NCBI GenBank assembly: GCA_051859825.1
Contig: JBHYFA010000001.1
Location: 36,268 to 100,267 of the forward strand
Direction: 5' to 3'
DNA from: Schleiferiaceae bacterium
GTDB taxonomy: Bacteria > Bacteroidota > Bacteroidia > Flavobacteriales > Schleiferiaceae
DNA: 64,000 bases
Part shown: piece by piece, positions 5 through 46,032 of the stretch
How the letters are laid out: every line of letters begins with the position of its first letter
Numbering within the stretch: position 1 is the stretch's first letter
Made by a program: the position numbers and the translations under genes
The notes under the pieces: model-generated
What the model was told of the DNA's origin: nothing
Databases searched by the model: none
What the model saw: only the letters and a program-made list of their open reading frames with translations

Positions 5-976
5 ATGAGTTCCGCCATTGAAAAATGGTACGATGAAAATAAGCGCGATTTACCCTGGCGAAAAAAACCTAACCCATACATGGTTTGGCTCGCGGAAATC
101 GTTTTTCAACAGACCCGAATCCAACAAGGTCTAAATCACTACAAACGAATCCTTGAATCATTCCCTAAACTAGAAAACCTCGCTCAAGCATCTGAGGATG
201 AGGTGTTAAAACTTTGGGAAGGACTGGGATACTATTCACGTGCTCGCAACCTCCTTAAAGGAGCTAAACAAATTTCAGCTAAAGGAAATTTTCCCTCCAA
301 GGCAGCAGAATGGGAAAAAATCTCTGGCGTTGGCCCATACACGGCAGCCGCAATTAGCTCAGTTTGCTTTCGGGAAAAAATTGCTGTCCTCGACGGAAAT
401 GTGATGCGCGTAATTGCTCGTGTTTTTTTAATCAAAAATGACATCAGGCTAAAAAGCACCCAAGACAAACTCCGGAATCTAGCGCAAAAATTTGTTGATA
501 AATCCGTATATCCTGGAAATCTTAATCAAGGATTAATGGAAATTGGGGCGCTCATTTGCCTACCAAAAAATCCTAAGTGCCAAAAATGTCCCCTAAAAGA
601 CAACTGTCAACTCTATACAAAAAATGAGGCTGCAGCAGACTACCCTTACAAAAGCCCACCCCCTAAAAAAACCGAACGACATATTCATTGGCTCATTGCT
701 TCAAATAGTAAATTTCTAATGTTGCGAAGGCGCAATGAAAAAGATGTGTGGCAAGGACTTTACGAGTTGCCGCAAACACTTAAGCCTCCGGGCTCTATTT
801 ATCCAAACGCTCAACTTATTCATAAAGGCTCGCATATTCTGAGTCATCAGAAGATTTTCTATCATATATGGGATATTGAACAGTGGAGTAAGCTGTCCAT
901 GGAGTTTCAAGCATTTGATATTGACAGGGAGTTGCCGGCTTTGCCAAGGCCGATACAACGATTCCTCAACAAATAG
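5..976 (+). CDS. mutY: A/G-specific adenine DNA glycosylase MutY
   Basis: HhH-GPD core (VWLAEIVFQQTRIQQG, GVGPYTAAAISSVCF). 4Fe-4S cysteine cluster CLPKNPKCQKCPLKDNC. C-terminal NUDIX-like domain. 323 aa. Confidence 0.85.
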   Translation: MSSAIEKWYDENKRDLPWRKKPNPYMVWLAEIVFQQTRIQQGLNHYKRILESFPKLENLAQASEDEVLKLWEGLGYYSRARNLLKGAKQISAKGNFPSKAAEWEKISGVGPYTAAAISSVCFREKIAVLDGNVMRVIARVFLIKNDIRLKSTQDKLRNLAQKFVDKSVYPGNLNQGLMEIGALICLPKNPKCQKCPLKDNCQLYTKNEAAADYPYKSPPPKKTERHIHWLIASNSKFLMLRRRNEKDVWQGLYELPQTLKPPGSIYPNAQLIHKGSHILSHQKIFYHIWDIEQWSKLSMEFQAFDIDRELPALPRPIQRFLNK

Positions 977-1052
977 TGGCTGTCTAGAAAGTCCGAGAGC
1001 TTCGTTATGCTCGTCTGCAAAAGCGGCTTTAGTCTTGCTTGTAGACACTACT
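974..1052. repeat. Short copy of the REP/MITE-like palindromic repeat family (TAGTGGCTGTCTAGAAAGTCCGAGAGCTTCGTTATGCTCG...TAGACACTAC)
   Basis: Same approx. 45-bp core recurs at 3526, 4350, 21597, 24660, 30751, 40104, 41455 and 55679. The TAG at 974-976 is the mutY stop codon. Confidence 0.6.
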
Positions 1053-2952: not shown

Positions 2953-3528
2953 ATGAACACCATACAACGTATCCTCTTGGTCTTCTTTGCTCTACAATTG
3001 GTCTTTTCGTGCAGTCAAGACCCTATTCCAAAACCCGTAGGCTATTTCCGCATCGAACTACCTCCGGATACATTTACCACTTTTCAAACGGAAACTTGCC
3101 CGTTTAGCTTTGAACATCACGCATTTTCACTGGTAAAACAAAAAAGAGAAAATTGCTGGTACGACATCATTTTTCCGCACCTGAATTCTATGATTCAACT
3201 TACGTATCTTCCCGTTGAAAATGATAATCTGGAAGACCTCCTCGCTGATGCACACAACTTAGTTTTTCGCCATAGCGTAAAAGCCGACGGAATAAAAGAA
3301 GTCTTGTACGTCAACGACCTCAGAAGAGTGTTCGGTATTTTATACAAGGTGCACGGAAACGCAGCCACAGCTACTCAGTTTTACGTCACCGATAGTGTGA
3401 ATCACTTTCTTCGTGGGGTAGTGTATTTTAATGTTGCTCCAAATGAGGACTCGCTGCGCCCGGTGAATGAGTATATGCATGGGCAGGTTCAAGGTCTAAT
3501 AGAAAGCCTAAATTGGTCTGAATATTAG
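2953..3528 (+). CDS. gldD: Gliding motility lipoprotein GldD
   Basis: 191-aa lipoprotein (signal peptide plus lipobox LVFSC). Lies immediately downstream of gldE, as in Flavobacterium johnsoniae. Confidence 0.65.
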   Translation: MNTIQRILLVFFALQLVFSCSQDPIPKPVGYFRIELPPDTFTTFQTETCPFSFEHHAFSLVKQKRENCWYDIIFPHLNSMIQLTYLPVENDNLEDLLADAHNLVFRHSVKADGIKEVLYVNDLRRVFGILYKVHGNAATATQFYVTDSVNHFLRGVVYFNVAPNEDSLRPVNEYMHGQVQGLIESLNWSEY

Positions 3529-3566
3529 TGGCTGGCTAGAAAGTCCGAGAGCGGCGTTATGCTCGT
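3526..3566. repeat. REP/MITE-like repeat copy (TAGTGGCTGGCTAGAAAGTCCGAGAGCGGCGTTATGCTCG)
   Basis: Near-identical to the copy at 974. Its TAG is the gldD stop codon. Confidence 0.6.
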
Positions 3567-3626
3567 TAAAAAACCAAGCCATTATGCGTTGTAAAAGTGA
3601 AATTGATTATTTAAGAGAGCGCGTCA

Positions 3627-4202
3627 TCAACGAAACATTACTTGTTCCCACAAAGGATACGGCATTTTCTCCTTCTCAAGATCATACTCAAACTCCGTCA
3701 TGAGCTCCCCCGTTTGCCAATCGATCCACGCCCACAATCCATCTCGTTTTACGGCAACATAGGTAAAATACTTTTTGTAGCTTCCGTAACCATCACGGTC
3801 GTTCATCGTACGGCCTACTTCGAAAATTTTATAATCATCATAAAGACAATCAACACTCTGACGAACGTCTTCTTCCGCAAACGACCACGGAGAAGTATAA
3901 ATGCCCACTTTGCCTGCTATCCATACGCCTGTTAAATAAGCGTTGAACCCAAAGAAGTCTATGGAGTCATACTGCATTGGAATCTTTTCTTCAATTACCT
4001 TTTCACTGTAAGCTTGAAACATGCCCCACTTTTTGGTCTTACGATGTTGAGCAATGAATACTCCATCTCCATTATTCATGTCAAGCTTATAATCGATTGC
4101 CCGGATTTTCTTTAACATCTTCTTAGTCACCCACTCATCATCATCTTGAGCATAAACCGTAAATCCCAAAAACAACCCAAAAAATAAAAGCAAAGTCCGC
4201 AT
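3627..4202 (-). CDS. Hypothetical secreted protein with W-rich (WG-like) repeats
   Basis: Cleavable signal peptide MRTLLLFFGLFLGFTVYAQ. Repeated KWG/W-containing segments. No recognisable catalytic motif. Confidence 0.5.
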   Translation of the reverse strand: MRTLLLFFGLFLGFTVYAQDDDEWVTKKMLKKIRAIDYKLDMNNGDGVFIAQHRKTKKWGMFQAYSEKVIEEKIPMQYDSIDFFGFNAYLTGVWIAGKVGIYTSPWSFAEEDVRQSVDCLYDDYKIFEVGRTMNDRDGYGSYKKYFTYVAVKRDGLWAWIDWQTGELMTEFEYDLEKEKMPYPLWEQVMFR

Positions 4203-4349
4203 AGTAAAAACGATTAGATTAGTATAAAAGTCATCATTATTGAAAGCTTATCTCATAATGAAGTCTTAATGAAACGCAAAAAAACATAATATATTTTTTA
4301 GCTCACCATCGTTTCTTCAAAAATAGCGGTAAAATGACTTTATTCATAT

Positions 4350-4381
4350 CGCTGTCATCGGACTTTATAGACAGACATTAT
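4350..4381. repeat. REP/MITE-like repeat end in inverted orientation (GCTGTCATCGGACTTTATAGACAGACATTA)
   Basis: Reverse complement of the TAATGTCTGTCTATAAAGTCCGATGACAGC core. Directly follows the stop of the minus-strand 246-aa ORF. Confidence 0.5.
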
Positions 4382-5122
4382 TTATTCACGTCGTGCTTTC
4401 TTATCCTTCTTCCTCCGCTTCTTCGACTTCTTCTTTTTCTTACTTGAAGAAAAGGAATTTTGCAAATGAGTAAGCGGCTGATAAACGTTAAAATAAAGAG
4501 TCAATATAGTGTCATTATCCTCCGTGATTTCTGGTTCCTTTAAGGTCATCGCGTCAACCTGGCCGATCAAAGCTTGTCGCGAAATTTCAAGGTCGTACTG
4601 TTCGAGTAGCGTGTACTCATCCGAAACTCTATTAACCACAAAAGCCGATTCAATTTCGAGACCATCGCCACTTTCACTTATAATATCTAAAAATCGATAA
4701 AATAAATTTCCGTAAAAATGTGCGGTAATGGTATCGCCTAATTCATGATGAGCAATCATTAAATAATATAGGGCTTGAAGATTTACTGGATCATCGTCCC
4801 AAACCTTTTTGGCTGGACTAATTGCATTTTCCCACTCTTTTTCTCTTAAAAAAGACACACTCTTTCTTAAACCAGGGTCGCGAAAATAAGGTTTATAGTC
4901 TCCCGAATACGCCCATCCGTAGTACAAATGAACCATCTCTTGCTTGTGCAGCATTTCTTTGGAACGCATCTTTTTCACTAAGGATGGGTAATAAAGGTCG
5001 CTTTTTTTATCGGTAACCGCCGCTTCAATTGCAGCTAAATCGATGGAGGTAGGTACTTGGGCAAACAAACTATTTGCTATAAAAAAAAGCACCACAATTG
5101 CGAATAAAGTATTCTTGCTCAT
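4382..5122 (-). CDS. Hypothetical secreted protein with a lysine-rich C-terminal tail
   Basis: Signal peptide MSKNTLFAIVVLFFIANSLFAQ. C-terminus SSSKKKKKSKKRRKKDKKARRE. Possibly a DUF4919-like Bacteroidota family. Confidence 0.5.
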   Translation of the reverse strand: MSKNTLFAIVVLFFIANSLFAQVPTSIDLAAIEAAVTDKKSDLYYPSLVKKMRSKEMLHKQEMVHLYYGWAYSGDYKPYFRDPGLRKSVSFLREKEWENAISPAKKVWDDDPVNLQALYYLMIAHHELGDTITAHFYGNLFYRFLDIISESGDGLEIESAFVVNRVSDEYTLLEQYDLEISRQALIGQVDAMTLKEPEITEDNDTILTLYFNVYQPLTHLQNSFSSSKKKKKSKKRRKKDKKARRE

Positions 5123-20522: not shown

Positions 20523-21396
20523 ACCAATTTTGCAAATCTTGGCAAAAATTGTTCTCATCAATTCTGAGATAATTTATTCCTGCATAAGACACGTAAGCTA
20601 CATTCTTAACCGGAGTGGTAACAAGTCCGTTACTTGCCATCATAAGAAAATCAACTTCGTAAATGCGCCAGGCTTTAGTATCGTGTTCAAATTGCTTCAT
20701 CTCAGAGCAAACTCGATCCATGAGTCGAATAACAGATTGATTGATATCCGTGGCATCCGAATCAGTAAGTTGTCCTAATGTTTGATAGTATTCGATTTGC
20801 CTAGATAAGTTGGTCAAAGTGTTTAAACTCCATATTTCGCAACGATTGAGCCGATTATAACTTTTATAAAACTCACCGCATGCGCGAAAAATCTCGTCGG
20901 GAATAAAATTGAAGTAATGAGAAAAAGTTTTTCCAGGAAGAAGTTCACTCAACCACACAGCAATTTTAAATCGAATAAGCGTAGGATCAGAAAAAAATAA
21001 AAACACCGGCAAATCCCGAGCGGCATAAAAAAACTCGTGAGGAACTGAGGCTAAACGATTCAGCTCTTCGACAGTTAGATTTAAATAATTCAGCAAATCA
21101 TCAATGTCGCGAATAAAATTTGGCCTTCGAACCATAAAATCCGTTTCTGGATTCATTACTAACTGATCCAAAGAAACACCAAAAGCGGAAGCTAATAACA
21201 TATAGTCCCTAGAAGTCAGCGTGGTCTCGCAACGTATTTTTTTATATGCCGCTGACTTCGAAATATCTAAAATATCCGAAACCTCACTACCTAAATTATT
21301 GCTCTCAAAACGTTTCGCCTTTATATGATCAAAGAAAACCCTTTGAATTTCTAGCAATTTATTCTCTTCCATTGTGTCCAATTTGAAAGTTTGCAA
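20425..21396 (-). CDS. Helix-turn-helix (XRE-like) domain protein
   Basis: N-terminal segment SEVSDILDISKSAAYKKIRCETTLTSRDYMLLASAFGVSLDQLV resembles an HTH. A 250-aa C-terminal domain of unknown function follows. Confidence 0.5.
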   Translation of the reverse strand: MQTFKLDTMEENKLLEIQRVFFDHIKAKRFESNNLGSEVSDILDISKSAAYKKIRCETTLTSRDYMLLASAFGVSLDQLVMNPETDFMVRRPNFIRDIDDLLNYLNLTVEELNRLASVPHEFFYAARDLPVFLFFSDPTLIRFKIAVWLSELLPGKTFSHYFNFIPDEIFRACGEFYKSYNRLNRCEIWSLNTLTNLSRQIEYYQTLGQLTDSDATDINQSVIRLMDRVCSEMKQFEHDTKAWRIYEVDFLMMASNGLVTTPVKNVAYVSYAGINYLRIDENNFCQDLQNWFMKQISNSTSLVASKKSRILFFQRLKKPFESQ

Positions 21397-21589
21397 ATAG
21401 AATTACAACAATAAACCTGAATTTTGAATTTTCAATTAATTAATCATCAAACTTTTTTGTCGAATAAATTTACAATCAACTGAAAATTGTTCTACAAAAC
21501 AAACATACATGAAACTTAATACAAACGCAACTTTATTTTAATATTTGTGATAGTTCAGATTAACCAAAAAAATTTACCAACCAGTCAGA

Positions 21590-21905
21590 TTCTAGCTAGT
21601 GACTGTCTATAAAGTAAAGAGTCTGCCTCAGAAAGTTCATAAGCAGGGCTTGCGAAGGTTGAAAAACAGTGAGTCCCGACAAGTCTTTGTCGGGATGACC
21701 TTTTTTCAACCGAGCATAACGCAGCTCTCGGACTTTAAAGACAGACACTAGTTAGAGTCTGTCCATAAAGTGCAAGTGGCTAGGCTAGAAAGTTCGAGAG
21801 CGAGGCTTGCGAAGGTTGAAAAACAGTGAGTTTACATTAGTAAATGACCTTTTTTTCAACCGAGCATAACGAAGCTATCGGACTTTATAGACAGACACTA
21901 GTTAA
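21590..21905. repeat. Tandem array (about 2.5 units of about 150 bp) of the full-length REP/MITE-like palindromic element
   Basis: Each unit carries terminal inverted repeats GTCTGTC(T/C)ATAAAGT...ACTTTA(T/A)AGACAGAC and a central hairpin (GGTTGAAAAACAGTGAGT...ACCTTTTTTCAACC). The last unit supplies the stop codon of the rluA-like gene. Confidence 0.7.
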
Positions 21906-22581
21906 AGCCCCAGGCTGAAAGATAGTTCTGCTTAGTAACAACCTCCACAACATCATCTTTCACCGGATGCTTAAAAATAACTTTAGCTGATTGCAAACAA
22001 ATGCTCATATCTTTATTGGCACGTCGAGCACCATACTTTACATCACCTTTTACCGGATGACCGATTTCACTAAATTGCGCACGAATCTGATGATGCCGCC
22101 CCGTATGCAACTCCACTTCCAAAAGTGTATAACGATCAAAATATTGCAATACTGTAAACGAAAGACGAGCCTCTTTGGCGTCCTTCGAGCCATTAGCAGT
22201 AGCAAATGACTTATTAAGCTTGGAATTCTTTTTAAGATGATGCTTCAATTCCCCCGTCTCGTGGGTCAACTTCCCCTCAACCATAACATGATAATACTTC
22301 TGAACCTCCCTATCGCGAAACATCACGCTTACACGTGAAAGTGCTTTACTGGTTCGGCAAAGCACCAATAGCCCGGAGGTAACGCGATCAAGACGATGAG
22401 GTAGCCCGAGAAAAACTTTGCCTTGTTTATTATAGGTGTCAGCCAAATACCTCTTTCCCTTTTCAAGAATATCTTCATCACCGGTTTTGTCGCCCTGCGC
22501 CAGTTCACCCGCTAATTTATCAACAATCAACAGGTGGTTGTCTTCATATACTATCCTAGAAGAAAAATCAGTACTGCTCAT
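21898..22581 (-). CDS. RluA-family 23S rRNA/tRNA pseudouridine synthase
   Basis: Catalytic motif [13 protein letters not shown]. RluA/C/D-like fold. 227 aa. Confidence 0.8.
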
Positions 22582-23386
22582 TCTCGTTAGGAAAATCCTT
22601 AGATTTCACATCCGCTACATAGCTAGAAATTGCCCCCGTAATTTCTTCATAAAGATTTAAGTACCTCCTCAAAAATCGAGGAGAAAATTGGTGCGTCATA
22701 CCCAGCATATCGTGCAAAACCAATACCTGACCATCCACACCACTTCCCGCACCGATACCAATTACGGGAATATCTAAACTTTCTGCCACACGCGCTGCTA
22801 AAGCCGCGGGAACCTTTTCCAAAACCAAACTAAAACAACCAGCCTCTTGCAGCGCTACCGCATCTTCAATTAGCTTCTGAGCCTCCTCTTCTTCTTTGGC
22901 GCGAACAGTGTAAGTGCCAAATTTGTAAATACTTTGAGGCGTTAAACCTAAATGTCCCATCACAGGGATTCCGGCGGTAAGTATTCGTTTAATAGAATCT
23001 ATGACCTCTACACCTCCTTCCAACTTCACCGCATGAGCTCCAGCCTCCTTCATAATACGTATTGCGGAATTGAGCGCCTGCTTTGAATCTCCTTGATAGG
23101 AGCCAAAAGGCAAATCAACCACAATCAATGCGCGCTCAGCAGCACGAACCACCGAGCTAGCATGATATATCATCTGATCAAGGGTGATGGGCAAAGTAGT
23201 TTCGTGACCCGCCATTACATTCGAAGCAGAGTCACCAACGAGTATTACGTCAATTCCCGCTGCATCAACCATGCGAGCTAAGGTATAATCATAAGCAGTG
23301 AGCATTGAAATCTTCACGCCTTTACGCTTCATTTCCTGAACACTATGGGTAGTCATTCGTTTATTTGATGGTCGAATTGCAGACAT
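22568..23386 (-). CDS. panB: 3-methyl-2-oxobutanoate hydroxymethyltransferase (ketopantoate hydroxymethyltransferase)
   Basis: [29 protein letters not shown] and GHLGLTPQS motifs. 272 aa. Confidence 0.9.
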
Positions 23387-23522
23387 ATTTTGCTTTTTTA
23401 TTACCTCGCAAAGCTAAACAAAAAATAACAGCTTCATTGAATTATCAAATATATCTTTGCAAGTTCACAACGATTTGTTGAAAACAAAGAAACACACTCC
23501 GGATTTCCTGAGAATAATAAAT

Positions 23523-24662
23523 ATGAAGCACTTCACTCCTTCAAAAAATAAAACGCCCATAACTATGTTAGGAAGGTTATTCCTCATCGCCCTAATAGGC
23601 TTGACAAGTATTTTCTCATCGTGCAACAACGAAGTACCCGTAAACGCTGAGTGGCAAGATATTGCCTATGTATATGGTATTCTAAATGCGGCGGCAGACA
23701 CCCAATTTGTGCGCATTGGCAAAGCTTTTCTCGGAGACGGCCCACCCTCAGAATTTGCGCAAATCCCTGATTCTATCTACTACGAAAATATCAATGTTTC
23801 AATGGAAGAACTCAGTGGAGACAGAGTAGATCGAAGTTTTTCTTTGGAAAAAATCAATCGCCCAGGACAATTGCAGCCAGGATTCTTTACTACAGAAGGA
23901 TTTCATCTGTATTACACCACCGAGCAACTCGACACTTCCAAAACCTACCGCCTTGTCATAGAAAAACCCGATGGTGGCCCAACAGTCACGGCCGAAACCC
24001 GCCTTACTTTTTGGAGAAGAAACCTGAACACGGGAAACGTAATTGAACCTTTCACCGATAGGTTAGCGTTTATTAATACATTTGGAGAACCAAATGTTGT
24101 TAGATTTGTATGGGAGAAAGCGTTCAACTCAGGTGCACACGAAGGTCGGCTCATATTCCGATACAAGGAGCAAAATCGCAGCAATCGAAATGACATAAAA
24201 ACCAAAACCATTGTTTATCAAGTTCCAGCAGCTGAACGAAGAGACGATATTTTAATTGAGATCAGTGATGCCAATTTCTACGGATTTATCGCTTCAAATA
24301 TCCAGCCCGACCCAAATGTGTTTCGCTACTTCGACACCATATTCTTCGATGCCATTGCCGGTGGCGACGATATGCGCTTATACGCTGAAATCAATAGACC
24401 TTCGGGCGGAATTGCCCAAGAAAGACCCACGTTCACAAATGTAGAAAACGGCGTTGGCCTCTTCTCAAGCATGGCCGAAACCAGAGCATTAATCAACGGT
24501 AGAGTTAAGCGGTTTATGCTAAATAACAACTCCTATAATGCCCTTGTAATGGACCTCTGCGACCTTAACTTCGTCAAACTATCCTTTACCGACTCTTGCT
24601 ATTGCGATGGTGGGGTGGTGCAGAGGATTGGGAATACTACCGGGAACTGCAACATTAATTAG
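23523..24662 (+). CDS. Hypothetical lipoprotein, possibly DUF4249-like
   Basis: Lipobox LTSIFSSC. Start placed at MKHF (23523) inside ORF 23457-24662. Lies upstream of the TonB-dependent receptor gene. Confidence 0.45.
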   Translation: MKHFTPSKNKTPITMLGRLFLIALIGLTSIFSSCNNEVPVNAEWQDIAYVYGILNAAADTQFVRIGKAFLGDGPPSEFAQIPDSIYYENINVSMEELSGDRVDRSFSLEKINRPGQLQPGFFTTEGFHLYYTTEQLDTSKTYRLVIEKPDGGPTVTAETRLTFWRRNLNTGNVIEPFTDRLAFINTFGEPNVVRFVWEKAFNSGAHEGRLIFRYKEQNRSNRNDIKTKTIVYQVPAAERRDDILIEISDANFYGFIASNIQPDPNVFRYFDTIFFDAIAGGDDMRLYAEINRPSGGIAQERPTFTNVENGVGLFSSMAETRALINGRVKRFMLNNNSYNALVMDLCDLNFVKLSFTDSCYCDGGVVQRIGNTTGNCNIN

Positions 24663-24724
24663 AGTCTGTCCATAAAGTCAAAGTGACTAGGCTATAAAGT
24701 CCGAGAGCTTCGTTATGCTCCGGC
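24660..24724. repeat. REP/MITE-like repeat copy (TAGAGTCTGTCCATAAAGTCAAAGTGACTAGGCTATAAAGTCCGAGAGCTTCGTTATGCTCCGGC)
   Basis: Carries both the left-end (GTCTGTCCATAAAGT) and right-end motifs. Its TAG is the stop codon of the upstream ORF. Confidence 0.6.
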
Positions 24725-24774
24725 TAAAACTTTACTAAATAGACACTTGCATTTATAAACCGTTTTTCATTAAG

Positions 24775-24806
24775 AAGTTGCCTTAGAAATGGGGCAACTT
24801 TTTTTA
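24775..24806 (+). terminator. Putative rho-independent terminator (AAGTTGCC...GGCAACTT plus T7)
   Basis: 8-bp stem plus a TTTTTTT run between the lipoprotein gene and the receptor gene. Confidence 0.45.
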
Positions 24807-24940
24807 TGGATAGTTATAAATCTTCACACCCCCTCCCCCAATCATTCTTTAACATTTTTTTAATGGAAACGCTAGAAACAATAATCGTTTCCAAGGGTCT
24901 TATTCGTATTACTTTTGACAACCAAACACAATCACACATC

Positions 24941-27322
24941 ATGCTACGAAACCTACTCGTCTTTGCATTGTTTATCAGTGCAATACAGCTTTGGGGACAA
25001 AAAAAATTTACCATTAGTGGAGAGCTCCAAGATGACTCAAATGGTGAGTATATGATTGGAGTAAGCATTTTTGCTGAAGGCACAACCATGGGTACAACGT
25101 CTAACGCCTACGGTTTTTATTCTCTGAGTCTGCCCCCAGGAGAATACACCATTGCTTATCAATTTATCGGTTATGAAACCATTCGGAAAAAAGTTAAGCT
25201 TGAAAAAGATGTAATTATTGATTTAAAAATGAAGGAAGAAGGCAAAACTTTGGATGCCGTTGACATTACTACCCGCCGAGTTGATGCAAATGTGCGTAGT
25301 ATGGAAATGAGCGTTACCGAAGTTACGGCCAAGGAAATCGCAAAAATTCCCCAGCTCTTGGGCGAAATTGATGTAATTCGAAGTCTAACTCTCCTGCCAG
25401 GTGTTTCTGTTGTGGGCGAAGGAGCAAACGGTTTTAACGTACGTGGTGGAAATGTCGATCAAAACCTCATCCTCCTCGATGGCGCGCCGGTTTATAACTC
25501 CTCCCACCTTTTTGGTTTTTTCTCGGTCTTTAATGCCGACGCCATTCAGTCTTTTAAACTCTACAAAGGTGGTATTCCCGCAGAATATGGAGGCCGGCTA
25601 TCTTCGGTACTTGACGTACGCCAACGTGAGGGAAACTCCAAGCGCTTTAGTGGACAAGGAGGAATCGGGATTTTATCGAGTAGAGCAACCTTTGAAGGCC
25701 CCATCATTAAAGATAAAATGAGCTTCCTTGTCTCCGGCCGTCGCTCCTACGCCGATGTATTTACTTCGCTATCATCCAACGAAAACCTCAACGGAAACAT
25801 CCTTTACTTCTACGACTTCAATGGAAAAGTCAATTACCGTATCAACCGTAAGCACCGTATTTTCCTCGCGGGATACTTCGGAAGGGATGTACTGGGAATT
25901 CGTGATTTTGTAAACTTCAACTGGGGAAACGCCACCGGCACCTTGCGTTGGAACTGGACCATCAACAACCGACTTTTCTCCAATGCTACCATGGTATATA
26001 GTGATTACGACTACGCTATTGGCTCTGGTGATATCGATGAATTGGGACCAAGCGGATTTGCTTTTCGTCTCCAATCGCGTTTAAAAAACTACAAACTCTC
26101 ACAGCAATTTACCTACTTCGCTAATTCCGACCTAAAGTTTGATTTTGGCTATGAAGCTATCTACTACGATGTACAACCCGGAGTTGCAACCTTAGTAACC
26201 AATGAATCGCGAGACGTCAACACTTTCCGTTCGGAATTTGCTCTGGAGCCAGCGCTTTTTGCTAGTGCCGAACACAAAGTAAACGGATGGCTTTCTTTTC
26301 AGTACGGACTACGATTCAGTTCATTCTATAACCTCGGTCCGCGTGACGTAATATTGTATGATGGCCTGCCGGCAAACAGCGACAGCATTGGCATACAATC
26401 CTTTGGAAGAGGAGAAACCGTGGCCGCTTTTAATGATTTAAACGGTTTAGAACCTCGTTTTTCGGTAAATATTGGTCTTGATGAATCATCATCCATCAAA
26501 GCAAGTTACAACCGCACTCGTCAATACATTCACCTTATCTCCAACACCACCTCCCCCACCCCACTCGATACTTGGCGACCTTCCGGAAAGTATATCCAAC
26601 CAGCAACTGCCAATCAAGGAGCGGTAGGATATTTCAAAAACTTAAAAGAAAATACCTACGAGCTATCAGTAGAAGCCTTCTATAAGTATTTCAACAACTT
26701 AGTAGATTATCGCGATGGGGCAAACATTCTTATCGACGATGTTGAAACTTCATTGCTCAATGGCGATGGCCGCTCCTATGGTTTGGAATTTTTGCTTCGC
26801 AAGCAAACGGGCAAACTCCAAGGATGGATTGCCTACACGCTTTCGCGCGCTGAACGTATTGTGCCCGGTGACGATCCATTTATCAGCATAAATAACGGTG
26901 AGTGGTATTTGGCAAACTTCGACCGTCTGCACGATCTAACTCTAGTTGTTACCTACGAATTAAACGAACGCTGGGATTTTGGACTCAACTTCGCCTACCA
27001 AACCGGCCACCCCGTCACCTTCCCCGTTGGAAGAGCAGAGGTGGACAACAATATTTTTGTACCCGTAAACTCGGTCCGAAATTCCACACGAATCCCCGAT
27101 TTTCACCGCTTGGATTTGAGTGCAAACTACACCCCGCGAAAAAAGGAAGGTAGAAAATGGGAATCTTCATGGTCATTTGGTGTGTACAACGCCTATGCCC
27201 GTAGAAACCCCTTCTCTGTATTCTTCCGCAACGACCCAGACAACCCGGCAGTGAACCAAGCAGTGCGCCTCGCCATCTTCGGAACCATCATACCATCGGT
27301 AACCTATAACTTCAAATTCTAA
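24941..27322 (+). CDS. TonB-dependent receptor with an N-terminal carboxypeptidase-regulatory-like domain
   Basis: Start at MLRNLLVF (24941) with signal peptide. CarbopepD_reg-like segment GEYMIGVSIFAEGTTMGTTSNAYGFYSLSLPPGEYTIAYQFIGY. Plug domain. Long beta-barrel ending in ...YNFKF. Confidence 0.8.
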   Translation: MLRNLLVFALFISAIQLWGQKKFTISGELQDDSNGEYMIGVSIFAEGTTMGTTSNAYGFYSLSLPPGEYTIAYQFIGYETIRKKVKLEKDVIIDLKMKEEGKTLDAVDITTRRVDANVRSMEMSVTEVTAKEIAKIPQLLGEIDVIRSLTLLPGVSVVGEGANGFNVRGGNVDQNLILLDGAPVYNSSHLFGFFSVFNADAIQSFKLYKGGIPAEYGGRLSSVLDVRQREGNSKRFSGQGGIGILSSRATFEGPIIKDKMSFLVSGRRSYADVFTSLSSNENLNGNILYFYDFNGKVNYRINRKHRIFLAGYFGRDVLGIRDFVNFNWGNATGTLRWNWTINNRLFSNATMVYSDYDYAIGSGDIDELGPSGFAFRLQSRLKNYKLSQQFTYFANSDLKFDFGYEAIYYDVQPGVATLVTNESRDVNTFRSEFALEPALFASAEHKVNGWLSFQYGLRFSSFYNLGPRDVILYDGLPANSDSIGIQSFGRGETVAAFNDLNGLEPRFSVNIGLDESSSIKASYNRTRQYIHLISNTTSPTPLDTWRPSGKYIQPATANQGAVGYFKNLKENTYELSVEAFYKYFNNLVDYRDGANILIDDVETSLLNGDGRSYGLEFLLRKQTGKLQGWIAYTLSRAERIVPGDDPFISINNGEWYLANFDRLHDLTLVVTYELNERWDFGLNFAYQTGHPVTFPVGRAEVDNNIFVPVNSVRNSTRIPDFHRLDLSANYTPRKKEGRKWESSWSFGVYNAYARRNPFSVFFRNDPDNPAVNQAVRLAIFGTIIPSVTYNFKF

Positions 27323-29316: not shown

Positions 29317-30726
29317 ATGAAAACGATTACCGGAAAAGATTTGCGAAACATTGGATGGGAAGAAAATGCCAGTTTGGGACAAGCACTTAAAATCATCGAG
29401 TGCAGTAAAGTGAACATGTCGCTTGATACGTTGACGTTGTTGTACCAAAACCCGGAAGATTTTGTCATCAACCCCGTTTACGGTGAAATGGCCGAAATGC
29501 TGATTGCACATCGCGAAAGCATAAAAGACGACATTATTCCCATAGCCGAATCAGGTGGAGAATACAAAAAGTACGGCGAAGAACACATTGAAGAAGGTGC
29601 TCGTAAACAAATGGAAGTGGCCATGCGCTTGCCGGTAACGCGTGCGGGCGCCCTTATGCCCGATGCGCATCAAGGTTACGGCTTGCCCATTGGTGGGGTT
29701 TTGGCAACCAATAACGCCGTTATACCCTTTGGTGTAGGGGTGGATATTGGGTGTAGAATGGCGTTATCGGTATTCGATATGCCGGAAGATGATTTTTATC
29801 TCAACCACGATAAATTCAAACGTGAACTCATCGCTCATACGCGCTTTGGCGCGGGCCACGGGTTTGTACGCAAGCATCGCAGCGAACACGAAATCCTCGA
29901 CCATAAATTGTTTGACGAAAATCACTTCGTAGGCAATTTAAAAGACAAAGCCTGGAGTCAACTTGGGTCTTCTGGTGGAGGGAATCACTTTGTGGAATTT
30001 GGTATTCTGGATTTTGCCGAAGACGATGCCGAATTGAACATCCCTAAAGGAAAATACGTAGCCTTGCTTACCCACTCCGGATCACGCGGGTTGGGGGCAA
30101 CCATTGCCGGACATTACACCAAGCTCGCTAAGGAAGTGTGTAAACTCCCCGACGAAGCCAAGAATCTCGCCTATTTGGATTTAAACTCCGAACTCGGTCA
30201 GGAGTACTGGGCAGCGATGAACTTGGCCGGCGATTATGCGTCGGCTTGTCACGAGATCATCCACCAAAAACTGACCAAAGCGCTGGGATTAATCCCGTTG
30301 GCAAAAGTGGAAAACCACCACAACTTCGCCTGGAAGGAAACCATCAACGGCGAGGAAGTGATTGTTCATCGCAAAGGCGCAACACCGGCAGCCAAGGGTG
30401 TTATGGGCATCATTCCCGGCAGCATGACCGCCCCCGGATTTTTGGTACGCGGAAAGGGTGAAGCAGAAGCCATCAATTCCGCTTCGCACGGTGCAGGCCG
30501 ACAAATGAGTCGAACTAAAGCCAAGAAGTCGGTAACCCGCACCGAGCTTAAGCAGGTACTAAAAGACCACGGCGTTACCCTCATCGGTGCCGGGTTAGAC
30601 GAAGCGCCAATGGCCTATAAAGACATCCATTTGGTGATGGAAGCCCAAAAGGATTTGGTCGATGTCGTTGCCAAGTTTAGTCCAAAAATGGTTCGCATGG
30701 CCGATGATGGTAGTCGTGAAGATTAG
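29317..30726 (+). CDS. rtcB: RNA-splicing ligase RtcB
   Basis: Metal/GTP-binding motifs DAHQGYGLPIGGV, GGGNHF, HRKGAT, SHGAGR (His nucleophile region). 469 aa. Confidence 0.9.
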   Translation: MKTITGKDLRNIGWEENASLGQALKIIECSKVNMSLDTLTLLYQNPEDFVINPVYGEMAEMLIAHRESIKDDIIPIAESGGEYKKYGEEHIEEGARKQMEVAMRLPVTRAGALMPDAHQGYGLPIGGVLATNNAVIPFGVGVDIGCRMALSVFDMPEDDFYLNHDKFKRELIAHTRFGAGHGFVRKHRSEHEILDHKLFDENHFVGNLKDKAWSQLGSSGGGNHFVEFGILDFAEDDAELNIPKGKYVALLTHSGSRGLGATIAGHYTKLAKEVCKLPDEAKNLAYLDLNSELGQEYWAAMNLAGDYASACHEIIHQKLTKALGLIPLAKVENHHNFAWKETINGEEVIVHRKGATPAAKGVMGIIPGSMTAPGFLVRGKGEAEAINSASHGAGRQMSRTKAKKSVTRTELKQVLKDHGVTLIGAGLDEAPMAYKDIHLVMEAQKDLVDVVAKFSPKMVRMADDGSRED

Positions 30727-30750: not shown

Positions 30751-30876
30751 CATAGTTGCTAGGCTAAAAATTTCGAGAGCAAGGCTTGCGAATGATTAAA
30801 AAGCGGAGTTTACGTTTGGTAAATGAGCATTTTTAAGCATTCGCGTAACGCAGCTATCGGAATTTTTAGACAGCAA
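30751..30876. repeat. Full-length variant of the REP/MITE-like element with a compensatory central hairpin
   Basis: TAGTTGCTAGGCTAAAAATTTCGAGAGC...GCGAATGATTAAAAA / TTTTTAAGCATTCGC...CAGCTATCGGAATTTTTAGACAGCAAC. The stem halves co-vary relative to the 21.6-kb copies. Starts 25 nt after the rtcB stop. Confidence 0.65.
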
Positions 30877-31011
30877 CAAATATTGAGGGAGGCTTGATGC
30901 GTGTTTCTGTATAGCACCATTGCCGTGTGCGCTCCACGTGGGTGGATTGCGCTTCACCGTTCACCTCCTCTTGATGGTTTTCGGTCGTTTTCCTCAAAAT
31001 GACCACCAAGC

Positions 31012-31110
31012 GCTATATGTCGTGGGTTCGATTCCCACCTGTGATTTTCACAGTAGCTCAGTTGGTTAGAGCAATAGTTTATGGCGGAGGTTCGAATCCT
31101 CCACGCAGTT
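31012..31110 (+). pseudogene. tRNA-derived fragments: X 3'-half (anticodon 3'-stem, variable loop, T-arm GTGGGTTCGATTCCCAC, acceptor), then X 5'-half (acceptor, D-arm TAGCTCAGTTGGTTAGAGC), fused to Y T-arm (GGAGGTTCGAATCCTCC) and acceptor
   Basis: Canonical D-arm and T-arm consensus on the + strand, but no complete cloverleaf. 31047-31053 pairs with 31039-31045, and 31103-31109 pairs with 31116-31122, so the 3' halves precede their cognate 5' halves. Confidence 0.4.
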
Positions 31111-31115
31111 GTAAA

Positions 31116-31190
31116 GTTGCGTTAGCTCAGTGGCAGAGCACTACACTGTTAATGTAGTTTGACTGGAGGTTGTATTCGCTCCTTAAACGA
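31116..31190 (+). tRNA. Degenerate tRNA-Asn(GTT)-like gene (probable pseudogene)
   Basis: Acceptor GTTGCGT. D-arm TAGCTCAGTGGCAGAGC. Intact anticodon stem-loop CTACA-CTGTTAA-TGTAG (anticodon GTT). The T-arm is corrupted (GGAGGTTGTATTCGCTCC, an apparent local inversion of the TTCGAAT loop) and no matching 3' acceptor follows. Confidence 0.35.
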
Positions 31191-39026: not shown

Positions 39027-40076
39027 TCAAAGCCCCTGAAAAACAAACGGTTTTGCATTTTGAAAATGCTTTGATGATTCACCGTTGTAAACTTGGTTAT
39101 TGTCGAGACTCAATTTGCGTACTTTAGCTTTTGGTCTAAAATCGAGGTTACTAAAATCTACCCAAACGGTATTTGGTGTAAGTACATTTTCAAAGTAATA
39201 CACTTTATTTTTTTGATCAGCTACAGTACGCCAGCGGGTGCTTGATAAGTTAGGGAAGCCTTCGGTAGAAATTCCGTAGGGAACGGAACAATTGCGAATT
39301 ACGCTGAATACGCTGGCCACGGCAACGTAGGTATTATCCGTTTGGGGAATAGCCTCGATATAAAATGAAGCTCTGGCAAAACGATCAGGGGGATTGTTGG
39401 TACCTGGAAGAAAGATTTTACCGGGAATGGTTTTCCAATAGTTGCTTATAGCCAGTTGATCTTCGTATTTAGGATCGTTAGTCATTACGGTATAGGATGG
39501 GTCGTGGTGAATAACCAATTTACCTTTAATGTATTCAAATATTGCGTTATCACCGGTAGCGTCAGACATGGAAAGGTGCACGGTTGTGTATTTATCAGTT
39601 CCGGGTATAAAATCGGTAACAACCACAAATTCATTTTTTTCAAAATGTTCTACAGCTTCCGCAACGGTGGCAAAATTATCGAGTACATATTGTGCCCACA
39701 GCGAAACAGAGAGTCCCTTTTGATCTCCATCTTTTTCGAATCTAGGATACTCTGAATTCACTAGCCACAGCATGTTGGCAACCAATCCTTCTTCGTTCAT
39801 ACCGTCGGAAGTGCCAATATCCCAAGAACTTGCAATTACACTTCCGTACTTAGAAACCCACTCTACAGAATTTCTACCCACAGCTCCGTTGCGCTCCATT
39901 CCCCGTGGAAATAACCAAAGATTTGCCGGTATATCAATGGAAAAATCCATACTTCTTGCAGTAATAACGGTATTACTTGGGCCTTTATATACTACTCGCG
40001 TGCACGCTTCAGATGGTGTAGTCGTTGTCAAGAAAAAGCCTGATACTAAAAGGCAGGAAAGAAAAAATTTGTTCAT
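39027..40076 (-). CDS. Choloylglycine hydrolase / penicillin V acylase-family Ntn hydrolase
   Basis: Signal peptide ending ...PSEA, followed by Cys (CTRVVYKG), the N-terminal nucleophile. Length and motifs match linear amide C-N hydrolases. Confidence 0.7.
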   Translation of the reverse strand: MNKFFLSCLLVSGFFLTTTTPSEACTRVVYKGPSNTVITARSMDFSIDIPANLWLFPRGMERNGAVGRNSVEWVSKYGSVIASSWDIGTSDGMNEEGLVANMLWLVNSEYPRFEKDGDQKGLSVSLWAQYVLDNFATVAEAVEHFEKNEFVVVTDFIPGTDKYTTVHLSMSDATGDNAIFEYIKGKLVIHHDPSYTVMTNDPKYEDQLAISNYWKTIPGKIFLPGTNNPPDRFARASFYIEAIPQTDNTYVAVASVFSVIRNCSVPYGISTEGFPNLSSTRWRTVADQKNKVYYFENVLTPNTVWVDFSNLDFRPKAKVRKLSLDNNQVYNGESSKHFQNAKPFVFQGL

Positions 40077-40103: not shown

Positions 40104-40140
40104 TAGTGTCTGTCTATTAAGTCCGATGACAGTGTTATGA
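40104..40140. repeat. REP/MITE-like repeat copy (TAGTGTCTGTCTATTAAGTCCGATGACAGTGTTATGAAG)
   Basis: Core motif shared with the copies at 4350 and 21597. Confidence 0.5.
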
Positions 40141-40260
40141 AGAAGTATAATTAACAGCCTTAAAAGTAGTAAACACAATTGATTGAATGGCGGTAAATAA
40201 AAATATTTTTTTATGATACTATTTTTTGTAAGTTTGCATTCTAACCCATTAATAATTAGC

Positions 40261-41457
40261 AAAATGAAAAATGTTTTACTTTTTTGTAGTTTTTCTTTCT
40301 CTTTTGGGCTTGCTGCGCAAATACCCTCTAGTCACTTTGAGTTACCCATTTTCCCAGATTCTGCAACTTCAATGTTATTTGAAGACAATGTCGGAGCATT
40401 GAGTCTGCCTGCACATGGCGGAAGTCAAGTTTATGATTACACTAATATTGTGGATGAATCTAGCTTTGGTAGCTATTACGAAGCATCAGATAACAATCCC
40501 AATTTTCCCAATGCGGATGCCATGCAAACTTACTCCTCCTTTTTAAGTACACTAGAAATTACCGGTAATCGAGCTTATTACAAAAAAGATCAAAACGCTT
40601 TGTATTATTTAGGCTTTGAAACTCCTGTAGGCTCGTATGAAATTGGCTCTGTTTCCATGCATCCGGAAGACTCAATATGGTTTGTTGGGTCGCACACCTA
40701 CCACGGAACGAATGTTCCAATAATTGAGTATCCAATTACTGTAGCTCCGCAGAATTCTTCCTGGGCAGCAAGTTATGATGAAATCACTGATTTTGAGATT
40801 ACAGTTACCATGGCGAATATCATTCAAGCCCCGGGGCAATTGAAACAAAGTGTTCAACAGCACGATACAGTGGTAGGATATGGAATACTCACTCTTCCAT
40901 CTACGGCAAACATTCCTTCAAACGGATACTTCACTAAATTAGTTCGAGAAACTGTCACCACGGTAGATAGTTTCTTTTTAGGTGGTCAACCTGCTCCGCC
41001 AGCGTTATTGGCTCAATTTAGCTTAAGTCAAGGCGAAGTAAATACTATCCATCGATATAAGTTTTTTGCTCACGACCCACTGCAGCCCAAAATGCGCTCA
41101 ACCTTGATGGTGTTAAATCTGAATTCTGCCGCAAACGCAGTAATTGGAGGAAGTTATGATTTGGATTTTTATTCAAGCGTGTCCGTTCAGAAGTTTGGCG
41201 AAGAATTTTCACCGGTAATATCTCCAAATCCAGCCGCTTCTCGCACTGCTTTACAATTTCAGAGACCTCTCGATCAAAATATTAAACTAGTGGTAATGGA
41301 TATGCACGCTAAGGTTGTGAAGGAGATTAACGGAAAAAGGGGTTCCGATGAAGTCACTATTGAAGTAGATGGTTTAGGTTCAGGCATGTACTTAGTGTAC
41401 GTGTACGATGAAGGAGGTGCGTTTCTTGCGAGCCGAAAACTCATCAAAAACGATTAG
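40261..41457 (+). CDS. Hypothetical secreted protein with a T9SS C-terminal sorting domain
   Basis: Start trimmed to MKNVLLF (signal peptide). C-terminus ISPNPAASRTALQF...GMYLVYVYDEGGAFLASRKLIK matches the T9SS CTD pattern. Confidence 0.6.
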   Translation, partial: KMKNVLLFCSFSFSFGLAAQIPSSHFELPIFPDSATSMLFEDNVGALSLPAHGGSQVYDYTNIVDESSFGSYYEASDNNPNFPNADAMQTYSSFLSTLEITGNRAYYKKDQNALYYLGFETPVGSYEIGSVSMHPEDSIWFVGSHTYHGTNVPIIEYPITVAPQNSSWAASYDEITDFEITVTMANIIQAPGQLKQSVQQHDTVVGYGILTLPSTANIPSNGYFTKLVRETVTTVDSFFLGGQPAPPALLAQFSLSQGEVNTIHRYKFFAHDPLQPKMRSTLMVLNLNSAANAVIGGSYDLDFYSSVSVQKFGEEFSPVISPNPAASRTALQFQRPLDQNIKLVVMDMHAKVVKEINGKRGSDEVTIEVDGLGSGMYLVYVYDEGGAFLASRKLIKND

Positions 41458-41485
41458 TGGCTGGCTAGAAAGTCCGGTTCTTCGC
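41455..41485. repeat. REP/MITE-like repeat copy (TAGTGGCTGGCTAGAAAGTCCGG...)
   Basis: Its TAG is the stop codon of the upstream T9SS gene. Truncated relative to the copies at 974 and 3526. Confidence 0.55.
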
Positions 41486-41545
41486 TAATTCATAAAGGCC
41501 ATTGCTTGAGATAGTAATGGCCTTTATGCAATAAGAATTATCGAA

Positions 41546-43663
41546 TTACTTTTCGATATTCACTTTGTAGGTATTCCTCACACCATTCATTTCAACCTTG
41601 AGTATATACATACCTGCTGCGAAATTGCTTAAATCCAGTTGATGTTGATTATTAGCATTTGGCCTAACGTGTTCGGAAAGCAGCGTCTTTCCGTTGAGAT
41701 CCGTAATGTCTAACTTTGCCGTTTCACCTATTGCCTCAAAAAATTCTACTGTTACTTTTCCTGATGATGGATTTGGAAATACATGTATAAAATTTTTCTG
41801 GGCATCCATGGTATTTACACTAACAAAGCATCCATGAAGAAGGTACGAAGGACATAATAGTAATGTGAGATGTGGCCGACTGAAGTTTCTAGAGAAAGAA
41901 AATCTGCTAAACCAATCACTTGAACCTAAATCGTACATGAGCGATTGATAAGGCGGCTCTGTTGTTCTATCATTCTTAACCATCACAGGAAACTGACCTG
42001 ATGAAGAGTATAGCTCGGCTACCAGCCAAAAGGCTGAATCTTTAATGGCGTGACTCCAAATTGGATTAGGGGTAGGATACTCGAAGGCAATCGAACCATT
42101 ATTTAAACCATAAGAGTCGAATATCATCTCGATATACTGATTGGTTATATCTGCTGCAGAAATGGTTTTTCGAGCGCTAAATAGAGGAGTATCATTTGTT
42201 AATAAATCATTATTCCGATATATTTTAAATTCTACTTCACCGCCAGCAATACTCTGGGGGGATAATCCAAGTCTTGCTCCAACAATTTCACCTCTAGAGC
42301 CTTCTTTTACTTCAAATCTCATAGCAATAGCGGATCCATCATCACCCAATTGGTTAGTTCCTATCGAGTTGTCAAATTTGTTAAAATGTAATCCAAGATT
42401 GTAGAACTGTCTTTCAAAGCTGAGCGTATCAGGAGCGTCAGTAACAGTATTGGGACTATTATCTGCGGCATCCAAACTATCGGATATTATTTTTACCACT
42501 ACGTCATATACGCCATTGGTAGTCGGCGACCAAGGTGACGTTTTCAACAGATTCGAATTTACAATTTGCCCCGGCGTTATTGTTCTTGGACTACTACTAA
42601 TAACAGATGAAAGCATTCCATTAGAATAAACTTCTGCTATAATTCGAACGTTGGTTTGAGTACTCGTACCAATGTTTCTAATATTCCCTCCAAATGAATA
42701 TCCACGTGTTTGCATATCTGTATAAGAGGGATACACGCCAGGGTTAACTATACCCCCACCAAAAAAGTTATACCAAACAGTTGGATTTTCAGCTTCAATA
42801 ACAAATGATTCAACATCTGAATTGAAGAGTGTTGACTTTTCAAACGCAAATAAGGTATTGGGCGCAGTTTTTATGGCAATATCATCTACCATCCAATAAT
42901 AGTATCCGTGGCTAGAAGAAGAAGTATCTATAACTCTATTTTTTCCGTCAAAAATGAGCTTAAAACGGGCGTTACTTTCTCCGCCTATGAATGTGCTTAC
43001 ATTAGCAATTGTTCGGTAATCTCGAGGTGTGATAGTATTAATTAAAAATTCATTCGCGACTTCAATGGTATCGGGGTAAGTGTTCCCTCCATCAGAACTA
43101 AAGGCAATAAAGCGTCTGGCGTTATAAGATCTGGCAAAACTAAATAACTCTATTATCACATCTGGGTGGTTAGATAGGTCTATAATTGGCGATTCTAAGG
43201 TTCCCATGTGAGGTGTAGGTGAAACCCCAGAGCCGGGGACATTGGTATTGCCATTATCCAAATAGTCTGAATCAAAAATCACGAAACCGTTGGCAGCAGT
43301 AGGAGAGGCGATAGGAAGGTTAGTTGGAGGTACATTATTAATTCCGGAGAAAAAACCTCGACTGCCAACTGAATTATCAGGAGAAGAATTTGGGCCACGA
43401 TATTCCCATAAAGCATTAGAATCAATAGTTATGCTATCCAAATAGCCAAGGTTATTCCATCCTGCTAAACCGTTAGAAAAGTCTTCAAACCAAATAGTGC
43501 TCGTTTCCGCACCATTAGTTTGAATAGGTTGGATATGGCTTCGTTTACTAACGTCTAAGTGGTGTTCTAAAGTTGCTTTTGCTTTACCTAGCTGAGTTGG
43601 TACAGATTGAGCAAACATTCCAACAGAAAGCAAGCAGAATGAAAAAGTATGGAGTTTTTTCAT
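41546..43663 (-). CDS. T9SS-CTD secreted protein, paralog 1 of a tandem triplet (MAM/choice-of-anchor-J-like conserved N-terminal domain)
   Basis: Signal peptide. Conserved block WFEDFSNGLAGWNN...WEYRGP...GSRGFFSGINN...NGFVIFDSDYLDNGNT...PHMGTLESPIIDLS...WMVDDIAIKTAPN. C-terminal T9SS CTD ending ...GMYILKVEMNGVRNTYKVNIEK. Confidence 0.65.
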   Translation of the reverse strand: MKKLHTFSFCLLSVGMFAQSVPTQLGKAKATLEHHLDVSKRSHIQPIQTNGAETSTIWFEDFSNGLAGWNNLGYLDSITIDSNALWEYRGPNSSPDNSVGSRGFFSGINNVPPTNLPIASPTAANGFVIFDSDYLDNGNTNVPGSGVSPTPHMGTLESPIIDLSNHPDVIIELFSFARSYNARRFIAFSSDGGNTYPDTIEVANEFLINTITPRDYRTIANVSTFIGGESNARFKLIFDGKNRVIDTSSSSHGYYYWMVDDIAIKTAPNTLFAFEKSTLFNSDVESFVIEAENPTVWYNFFGGGIVNPGVYPSYTDMQTRGYSFGGNIRNIGTSTQTNVRIIAEVYSNGMLSSVISSSPRTITPGQIVNSNLLKTSPWSPTTNGVYDVVVKIISDSLDAADNSPNTVTDAPDTLSFERQFYNLGLHFNKFDNSIGTNQLGDDGSAIAMRFEVKEGSRGEIVGARLGLSPQSIAGGEVEFKIYRNNDLLTNDTPLFSARKTISAADITNQYIEMIFDSYGLNNGSIAFEYPTPNPIWSHAIKDSAFWLVAELYSSSGQFPVMVKNDRTTEPPYQSLMYDLGSSDWFSRFSFSRNFSRPHLTLLLCPSYLLHGCFVSVNTMDAQKNFIHVFPNPSSGKVTVEFFEAIGETAKLDITDLNGKTLLSEHVRPNANNQHQLDLSNFAAGMYILKVEMNGVRNTYKVNIEK

Positions 43664-43733
43664 AACCTAATTGATAGACATTGTTTATACAACTTCATTT
43701 GTGCGATAAATATACATTGTTTCTTCTTAAGTT

Positions 43734-45902: not shown

Positions 45903-45982
45903 AGTAGTGGGTTTAAAAAATCAAAACGATTTAACGGTATCAAATGTATGGATTTTTTCAATAGAAAAATAATTTGTGCAAA

Positions 45983-46010: not shown

Positions 46011-46032
46011 AATTCGTTGTATCGAAAATTAA

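Follow-up and report, generated by a model that had tools for sequence, protein, structure and literature searches.

A probable miniature inverted-repeat transposable element of uncultured Flavobacteriales that overlaps stop codons

Introduction

Correia elements duplicate 2 bp, TA, on insertion. We analysed a repeat element that recurs at gene ends in a 64,000-nt stretch of a Schleiferiaceae bacterium (assembly GCA_051859825.1, contig JBHYFA010000001.1, forward-strand positions 36,268 to 100,267), hereafter the window, whose own coordinates are used throughout. We take the first bases of this repeat, TAGTGG, to resemble the Correia repeat; its target duplication is longer than the TA of Correia/NEMIS elements, as the central NN of the flanking TANNTA hexamers is itself directly repeated. 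An original prediction, made from the letters of the window, held that a mobile repeat is consistently fused to gene 3’ ends and donates the stop codon of the upstream gene. Our analysis indicates that the repeat is very probably a MITE (a miniature transposable element with inverted repeats) of uncultured Flavobacteriales with a stop-like target, TANNTA followed by A or G, and that about half of its copies lie on gene ends and leave the protein unchanged.

The bacterial MITEs that have been reviewed (Correia/NEMIS, RUP and ERIC; PMC2229807) are shorter than 200 bp and non-coding, with terminal inverted repeats (TIRs), 5’-TA-3’ junctions, a target-site duplication (TSD) and stop codons within the element; their transcripts are predicted to form long stem-loops, and the copies are mostly intergenic, often just past genes. 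The element described here is alike in all these respects. RUP inserts at TA-containing targets and has been linked to IS630-Spn1 (PMC2229807). Unlike the other bacterial MITEs, our element has asymmetric ends (one repeat versus two), an apparent 6-bp duplication, an uncultured Flavobacteriales host and no known parent insertion sequence. A survey of prokaryotic MITEs (PMC11602168) found them abundant in Flavobacteriales and does not mention stop codons.

Two further families share its habit of meeting genes. GTAG-REPs (Di Nocera et al. 2013, PMC3733652) resemble it in that a repeat terminus gives the flanking open reading frame (ORF) its TAG and that many copies lie near or overlap ORF ends; they differ in being 20–40-nt palindromes without target duplication and associated with RAYT, whereas the present element has TIRs, a TSD and a TA derived from the target. 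Rickettsia palindromic elements (RPEs) are likewise mobile palindromic repeats of about 100–150 nt that become fused to genes, but they lie in frame inside ORFs and are translated (PMC2229807), whereas the present element meets ORFs at the last codon only. The comparison with RPE or Correia elements that had been drawn for the window does not hold for either family, since the duplication is longer than TA and there is no in-frame coding insertion.

Anatomy, spread and target site

The core sequence CTGTCTANAAAGTCCGA had 11 matches with at most three mismatches in the 64-kb window against 0.5 expected, and repeat finding connected copies on the plus and minus strands; the window holds about 10 loci of the family. 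Gene identities were taken from the Pfam hits on record and from scans, and the ORF table was checked against the sequence. Scanning one genome per species with a search pattern that did not contain the TAG gave at least 61 loci in seven species-level metagenome-assembled genomes (MAGs) named Cryomorphaceae, Schleiferiaceae, Flavobacteriales or Bacteroidia; a metagenome scan added 20 loci, bringing the family to at least 81 loci in at least seven Cryomorphaceae/Schleiferiaceae species. Near-identical copies were dispersed over many contigs, and many matches of the genome scan sat at contig ends. Numerous MAG contigs (among L005–L065, e.g., L018, L025, L036, L038, L055 and L060) start or stop 20–50 nt inside the element, which shows that the repeat fragments short-read assemblies of these organisms. 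Rfam gave no match at gathering score over the window and only noise over the rluA array described below (E = 0.96), and ARAGORN found zero tRNAs.

Full elements were usually 145–160 nt long (mode 147–161, range 117–205) and non-coding, with TIRs of 17–19 nt, GTGKCTGTCYAKAAAGT, at both ends. At the A end, the terminal repeat, GTGKCTGTCTAKAAAGT, stood once and led into 20 nearly invariant nt, CCGAKAGCTKCGTTATGCT; the B end carried the 19-nt repeat twice in tandem, in inverted orientation, and in the consensus fold the inner B repeat paired with the A repeat. Between species, the A arm was nearly invariant over 38 nt, and conservation on the B side was far lower. Stops counted from the A end lay at +0 (TAG), +13 (TAA) and +23 (TAG), closing all three frames within 26 nt. 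The A-arm segment CGTTATGCT (alignment columns 30–38, e.g., window 21871–21863, minus strand) holds an ATG that opens an ORF of 3–9 codons only. A second subfamily of 195–205 nt had the same terminal repeat with another interior, GTCTCTCGCC...GGCGAGACGATCGTCCT (L032 1405–1599, L038 3217–3421, L016, L017, L022 and L057), and members of the main family optionally carried extra G+C hairpins, CCCCGATAGCTATCGGGG and TCTCGCCACTGGCGAGA.

The 36 full elements shared the layout TANNTA, G...C, TANNTA. The flanking 6-bp direct repeats were perfect in 22 of the 36 and included the non-palindromic hexamers TAAGTA, TAGTTA, TAACTA, TAAATA and TATTTA; the central NN of both hexamers agreed in 22 of 25 cases, compared with 0.17 expected (p = 1.6e-14). 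Being a direct repeat, the central dinucleotide belongs to a target-site duplication and is not part of the inverted repeat. In the target logo obtained from 111 ends, Y at −7 precedes T A (A64 G18 T20 C9) (T61 A22 C18 G10) T A, and the B side gave the same logo in mirror image; the target is symmetric, with the consensus Y-TA(A/G)(T)TA-R. In the recurring TAG, the TA is the one that closes the duplicated target, and the G is the base with which the element begins. The element therefore does not donate the stop codon, as had been proposed: TA comes from the duplicated TANNTA, and only the G is its own.

A REP-like or IS200/IS605-type palindromic element (single-strand, tyrosine/HUH), whose TAG head would supply stops as in GTAG-REPs, is highly improbable here. 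Its strand-specific mechanism could in principle yield an orientation bias of the kind reported below, but that bias is missing from copies 5–60 nt from stops, the base before the TAG falls within the variable duplication so that a conserved GTAG head is absent, and both sides carry direct 6-bp repeats of a symmetric target. A length of 145–160 nt with TIRs and target duplication also contrasts with REPs of 20–40 nt, described in PMC3733652 as a class without duplication.

Small and non-coding, with TIRs, a TSD of fixed length, filled and empty sites and many dispersed copies, the element has these defining features of a MITE, and the mobile repeat of the original prediction is upheld as one of this kind.

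Overlap with stop codons

In the window, six of the 12 element ends lay on a stop, compared with about 5% of target-like sites (p = 1.4e-5), and chance does not explain this pattern. The wider set of 124–134 element ends was scored against ORFs no shorter than 100 codons. Offsets between stop and element peaked at 0 (16 cases) and −4 (16–18 cases), with a few cases at −5, −2 and +13 and the others scattered; in the +13 cases, the stop was the element’s own TAA in the next frame. Each strand of the target carries two TAR triplets, spaced 4 nt apart, which predicts two modes of overlap with a gene stop, and both were seen. No read-through copy was found among the element ends, where ORFs ended at offset 0, −4 or +13.

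Exact overlap (offset 0 or −4) was found for 32 of 134 element ends, and a further 20 lay at most 60 nt downstream of a stop. Unoccupied YTANNTAR strand-sites, classified with greedy gene calls, comprised nine exact, 17 other 3’-proximal, 134 other non-coding and 304 coding sites. Against these, exact positions were enriched relative to all other non-coding sites (32/134 ends vs. 9/160 unoccupied strand-sites, odds ratio 5.3, p = 7e-6) and to other 3’-proximal sites (odds ratio 3.0, p = 0.03), and all 3’-proximal positions were enriched relative to other non-coding sites (odds ratio 3.3, p = 2e-5). A plain TANNTA null without gene calls, which suggested no excess, was rejected for including spurious ORFs. 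Some half of the copies are not at stops, yet an enrichment of about 5-fold remains, so that these copies do not refute the association. The proposed link to the junction of stop codon and 3’ untranslated region is thus real and extends across species; it comprises a target-site preference plus something more, probably selection.

A simple course of events accounts for these offsets. Insertion through the stop codon’s own TA restores a stop at that codon (TA plus G, offset 0) or leaves the native TAR intact 4 nt upstream of the element (offset −4), and in either case the protein does not change. Target-like sites would be unable to occur in frame within genes, while every TAA or TAG gene end would supply one, and the purging of insertions from coding and 5’ regulatory DNA would leave a 3–5-fold excess at gene ends over the motif prediction. 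We infer that purifying selection against such insertions is the simplest source of the excess beyond the motif. A target that resembles a stop, together with a first base that restores it, would give a simple sequence-level reason for the pile-up and make the gene end a neutral landing site. For annotation, this carries a warning: many TAG stops in these genomes are hybrid junctions, and MAG contigs break at the repeat.

Two further loci illustrate how both ends may meet genes. At L032 1405–1599, one element separates convergent genes, each of the two target-duplication copies acting as a stop codon. At L034 3884–4065, the offset is −4 for the A end and 0 for the B end.

Filled and empty sites

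The single case with close empty-site orthologs was recQ. The filled site (L047) reads ...GTT GCA AAC TA/G(157 nt)C/TAACTA/GGG, with slashes at the junctions; the empty sites, 84–86% identical, read ...GTT GCG AAT TAG ATC (L093/L095) and ...GTA GCC AAC TAA ACA (L097/L099). The protein ends in ..EVAN before the stop in the filled and all empty alleles. From this alignment, the native TAG or TAA stood at the same codon, and the recQ stop was re-created and not displaced.

In L066 and L067, which share the syntenic order hupB-mutY-ssb-corC-gldD, mutY and gldD end in native TAA or TGA stops and carry neither the element nor a TAGTG motif; among the genomes compared, these are the nearest relatives at the two genes (MutY identity 68% and 63%) and are too distant for exact-site reconstruction. 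A comparison with element-less orthologs had been called for in case an identical TAGTG proved to be a conserved terminator, and it removes that alternative.

A reading of the repeat as immobile, a native terminator or regulatory motif conserved at gene ends, accordingly has next to no probability. Its position right after ORFs and the ability of full copies to form hairpins would suit such a motif, but the empty sites already refute it: orthologous gene ends carry unrelated sequence instead. Variable 6-bp direct repeats flank the element, near-identical copies spread over many contigs that are often broken at the element, some copies stand in tandem arrays or, as at 40104, between divergent gene starts, and a terminator scan gave no consistent sense-orientation site.

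Copies in the window

The copy after mutY (974–1052, plus strand) is a 79-nt, internally deleted derivative whose A end abuts mutY and which has no clean TSD. The mutY stop, TAG 974–976, is made of TA 974–975 from the target and G 976, base 1 of the element, and a degenerate right end, GTAGACACTA, is located near 1041–1050. A read-through of mutY was considered and dropped: the likeness between NK-YLIY before the stop and ..KKYLHIK of P0007 is too weak to use, and homolog ends differ in length.

The gldD copy (3526–3584, plus strand) has its A end fused to the gldD stop TAG 3526–3528. It is 66 nt shorter, by an internal deletion, than the 124-nt copy (L001 10574–10699) of the near-identical strain JGI 3300059090, present on a 3.1-Mb contig; L001–L003 carry the full copy and L004 is the same as the window. 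The loss of 66 nt between near-identical strains looks like decay and not like a maintained terminator or stabiliser.

A truncated copy at 4320–4384 (minus strand) has its A end toward a DUF4919 ORF of 246 aa (4382–5122, minus strand) and exemplifies the −4 mode. The ORF’s stop, TAA 4384–4382 (minus strand), consists of the opening TA of the flanking hexamer TAAATA (4384–4379) and the base after it, whereas the equivalent of the element’s TAG is TAA 4380–4378, 4 nt past the gene stop and out of frame, with the first element base changed from G to A at 4378. Between the inward-facing A ends at 3526 (plus strand) and 4380 (minus strand) lies a 191-aa ORF (3630–4202, minus strand) that matches nothing in Pfam or NCBIfam and has a signal-peptide-like N-terminus. 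The arrangement looks like two separate insertions by coincidence and not like a composite element.

Two full elements stand in tandem after rluA. Unit A (21753–21900, minus strand) comprises the full 144-nt element and flanking TAs, with the TSD TAACTA on both sides, and is exactly fused to the rluA stop TAG 21900–21898 (minus strand). Unit B (21597–21750, minus strand), which was left out of the original prediction, has TAACTA / TAGCTA as its TSD, followed by G, so that rluA probably ended, ancestrally, in a TAG at the codon of its present stop. Just downstream of unit B is a terminator-like site (21600–21576, minus strand). The JGI strain (L069/L070) lacks unit A and carries one unit where the window has two, with TAACTA at every junction; in L069, this one unit is mosaic, combining the window’s two. 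The difference was downgraded as proof of fresh transposition on account of the mosaic, which makes unequal crossover as likely as new insertion. The mosaic unit in near-identical strains suggests gene conversion or unequal crossover between copies.

At 24660–24765 (plus strand), a decayed copy has its outer 19-nt repeat, TAGAGTCTGTCCATAAAGT, fused to the stop of a DUF4249 ORF (24660–24662); a second repeat, which has an A-type arm, GTGACTAGGCTATAAAGTCCGAGAGCTTCGTTATGCTC, comes next. The rtcB copy (30753–30879, minus strand) is diverged and full-length, with its A end at 30879 and its B side toward rtcB; it begins 26 nt past the rtcB stop at 30724–30726, which agrees closely with its earlier description as an exception to fusion. 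An A-end fragment at 40104–40145 (plus strand), omitted from the original prediction, lies between the divergent genes 39027–40076 (minus strand) and 40213–41457 (plus strand) and not at a gene 3’ end. A solo A-end repeat remnant of 23 nt (41455–41477, plus strand) is fused to the stop TAG 41455–41457 of an ORF with a Por_Secre_tail domain.

Seven exact fusions had been listed. Those at 974, 3526, 24660, 41455 and 21898–21900 (minus strand) are exact; at 4382, the gene stop lies 4 nt before the element’s triplet, and the minus-strand fusion assigned to lepA at 55676–55678 does not exist. The lepA gene is the plus-strand ORF 53789–55678, with a LepA_C domain extending to residue 626 of 629 and the stop TGA 55676–55678. 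Five nucleotides past this stop is a degenerate and doubtful TIR-like string, TAGTCTGTCGAGAAAGCTC (55681–55700, plus strand); the string from 55681, TAGTCTGTCGAGAAAG, was not picked up by the TIR searches, cannot confidently be assigned to the family and is not fused to lepA.

Folding, orientation and possible function

Full copies had predicted folding energies of −46 to −58 kcal/mol (z = −5 to −8.5). In the window, strong hairpins of the family were confined to the rluA array (−48.8 kcal/mol, z = −6.5) and the rtcB copy (−49.9 kcal/mol, z = −7.2). The mutY copy (−22.6 kcal/mol, z = −0.9), the 3526, 4380 and 24660 copies (z = −0.6, −0.4 and −1.6) and the 40104 fragment (z = +0.35) did not reach such values, and four of the five exactly fused window copies are truncated and fold no better than shuffled sequence. 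The strong hairpin that had been expected after each gene is therefore a property of full-length copies. A stable fold at 41455–41535 is due to another palindrome, at 41492–41537, which follows the 23-nt remnant and is shared with 43749–43794.

A terminator scan of 21300–25000 found no consistent sense-strand site and flagged the central hairpin of one unit, antisense to rluA, and one site outside the array. In the A-to-B sense, a U run lies 7–9 nt past the central stem and not directly after it, unlike in an intrinsic terminator. The Bacteroidetes promoter TTTG...TAnnTTTG had no match, only a −7-like box being present on the B-to-A strand of one subfamily. Insertions that are not conserved between species and decay between strains give no evidence of a terminator or stabiliser role, and such a role, which had been offered for the copies in the window, is unsupported. 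These copies are mostly old and decaying; function is neither needed nor indicated.

The orientation of copies at stop codons was strongly biased. Among the 36 full elements, the A end lay on the stop in 14 and the B end in one (p = 0.001); with every typed end counted, exact overlap with a stop was seen for 30 of 91 A ends but two of 37 B ends (p = 7e-4). For ends 5–60 nt from a stop, A:B was 15:6, which equals the detection ratio and indicates no bias. Three candidate causes were rejected: an asymmetric target, because A- and B-side flanks show the same logo; operon polarity, because exact insertions precede co-directional and convergent genes equally (12:12); and a promoter, because no promoter motif accounts for the A-end bias. 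It is unlikely, in our judgement, that the stop-overlapping copies are not neutral, being inserted in one orientation or retained only with the A end abutting the stop. If true, insertion at gene ends would be tied to the direction in which transcription or translation runs there, or the A-first hairpin RNA would affect termination, ribosome stalling or mRNA decay. A genome-wide bias would hint at an interplay of MITEs and translation termination in Bacteroidota, where 3’-end biology is poorly known.

A specific form of this idea is a selected 3’-end module, kept in one orientation at stops, whose RNA acts on the upstream gene through termination, stalling, mRNA 3’ stability or RNase processing; we consider it quite improbable. 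The bias is specific to stop-overlapping copies (14:1 in full elements and 30:2 in typed ends, against 15:6 at 5–60 nt downstream), a 3–5-fold enrichment is left after motif matching, the A-first stem starts at nt 1–4 and so includes the stop codon, and the A arm is nearly invariant over its 38 nt across species. Correia and ERIC transcripts are said to have effects of this kind. ERIC effects are known to depend on orientation (PMC2229807), and REPs or hairpins at most 15 nt from the stop stall ribosomes and act as a translational brake, according to work cited in PMC12306157; the full-length A-first stem of our element likewise starts at or next to the stop. Unlike that brake, most stop-fused copies of the window have lost the stem. 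The module is further opposed by orthologous sites that do not conserve insertions, by truncated stop-fused copies that fold like shuffles, one of them losing 66 nt between strains, and by the half of the elements that are away from stops. Neither a terminator nor a Bacteroidetes promoter motif emerged consistently, and apart from one block swap of the central-loop hairpin, the sole covarying pair lies within the transposase-type repeats.

Several observations weigh against the account of a MITE with a stop-like target to which we give preference. The symmetric target does not predict the A-end bias at stops, and the motif alone accounts for much, not all, of the enrichment, as the odds ratio of 3.0 for exact versus other 3’-proximal sites indicates. 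A 6-bp duplication and a shorter duplication with TA-ended repeats would look the same in these alignments and are indistinguishable on that basis. The mutY and gldD copies have no clean duplication, and 3–4 C-terminal codons may have been lost there. The rluA polymorphism may reflect unequal crossover as readily as fresh insertion, and gene conversion may also have contributed. No parent transposase was found in the window, at the at least 81 loci or in a plasmid search, and no autonomous element with matching ends was found; a viral contig scan gave no match. Partnerless A ends lead into ordinary genes, e.g., RelA/SpoT in L019, with no transposase, and one candidate (L064) from TIR pairs 300–4000 nt apart proved to enclose TetR/Crp/MBL genes and not a transposase. 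The asymmetry of the ends and the apparent 6-bp duplication of TANNTA provide handles for finding this enzyme.

Neighbouring loci

The rtcB copy lies between rtcB and a Y-RNA-like locus. At 30992–31157 (plus strand), downstream of rtcB, a match to the Y-RNA-like family YrlA (RF02553) fell short of the gathering score of 69, at 49 bits (E = 6e-10), and overlapped tRNA-like fragments at 31054–31102 and 31125–31157 that ARAGORN did not call. An RtcB-associated Y-RNA-like locus is likely at this position.

Downstream of the 23-nt remnant, 41546–48123 (minus strand) comprises three tandem paralogous genes of about 700 aa with a period of 2221–2251 nt (repeat families D1–D7), at least one of them with a Por_Secre_tail domain. 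The palindrome common to 41492–41537 and 43749–43794, AAAGGCCATT...AATGGCCTTT, is terminator-like.

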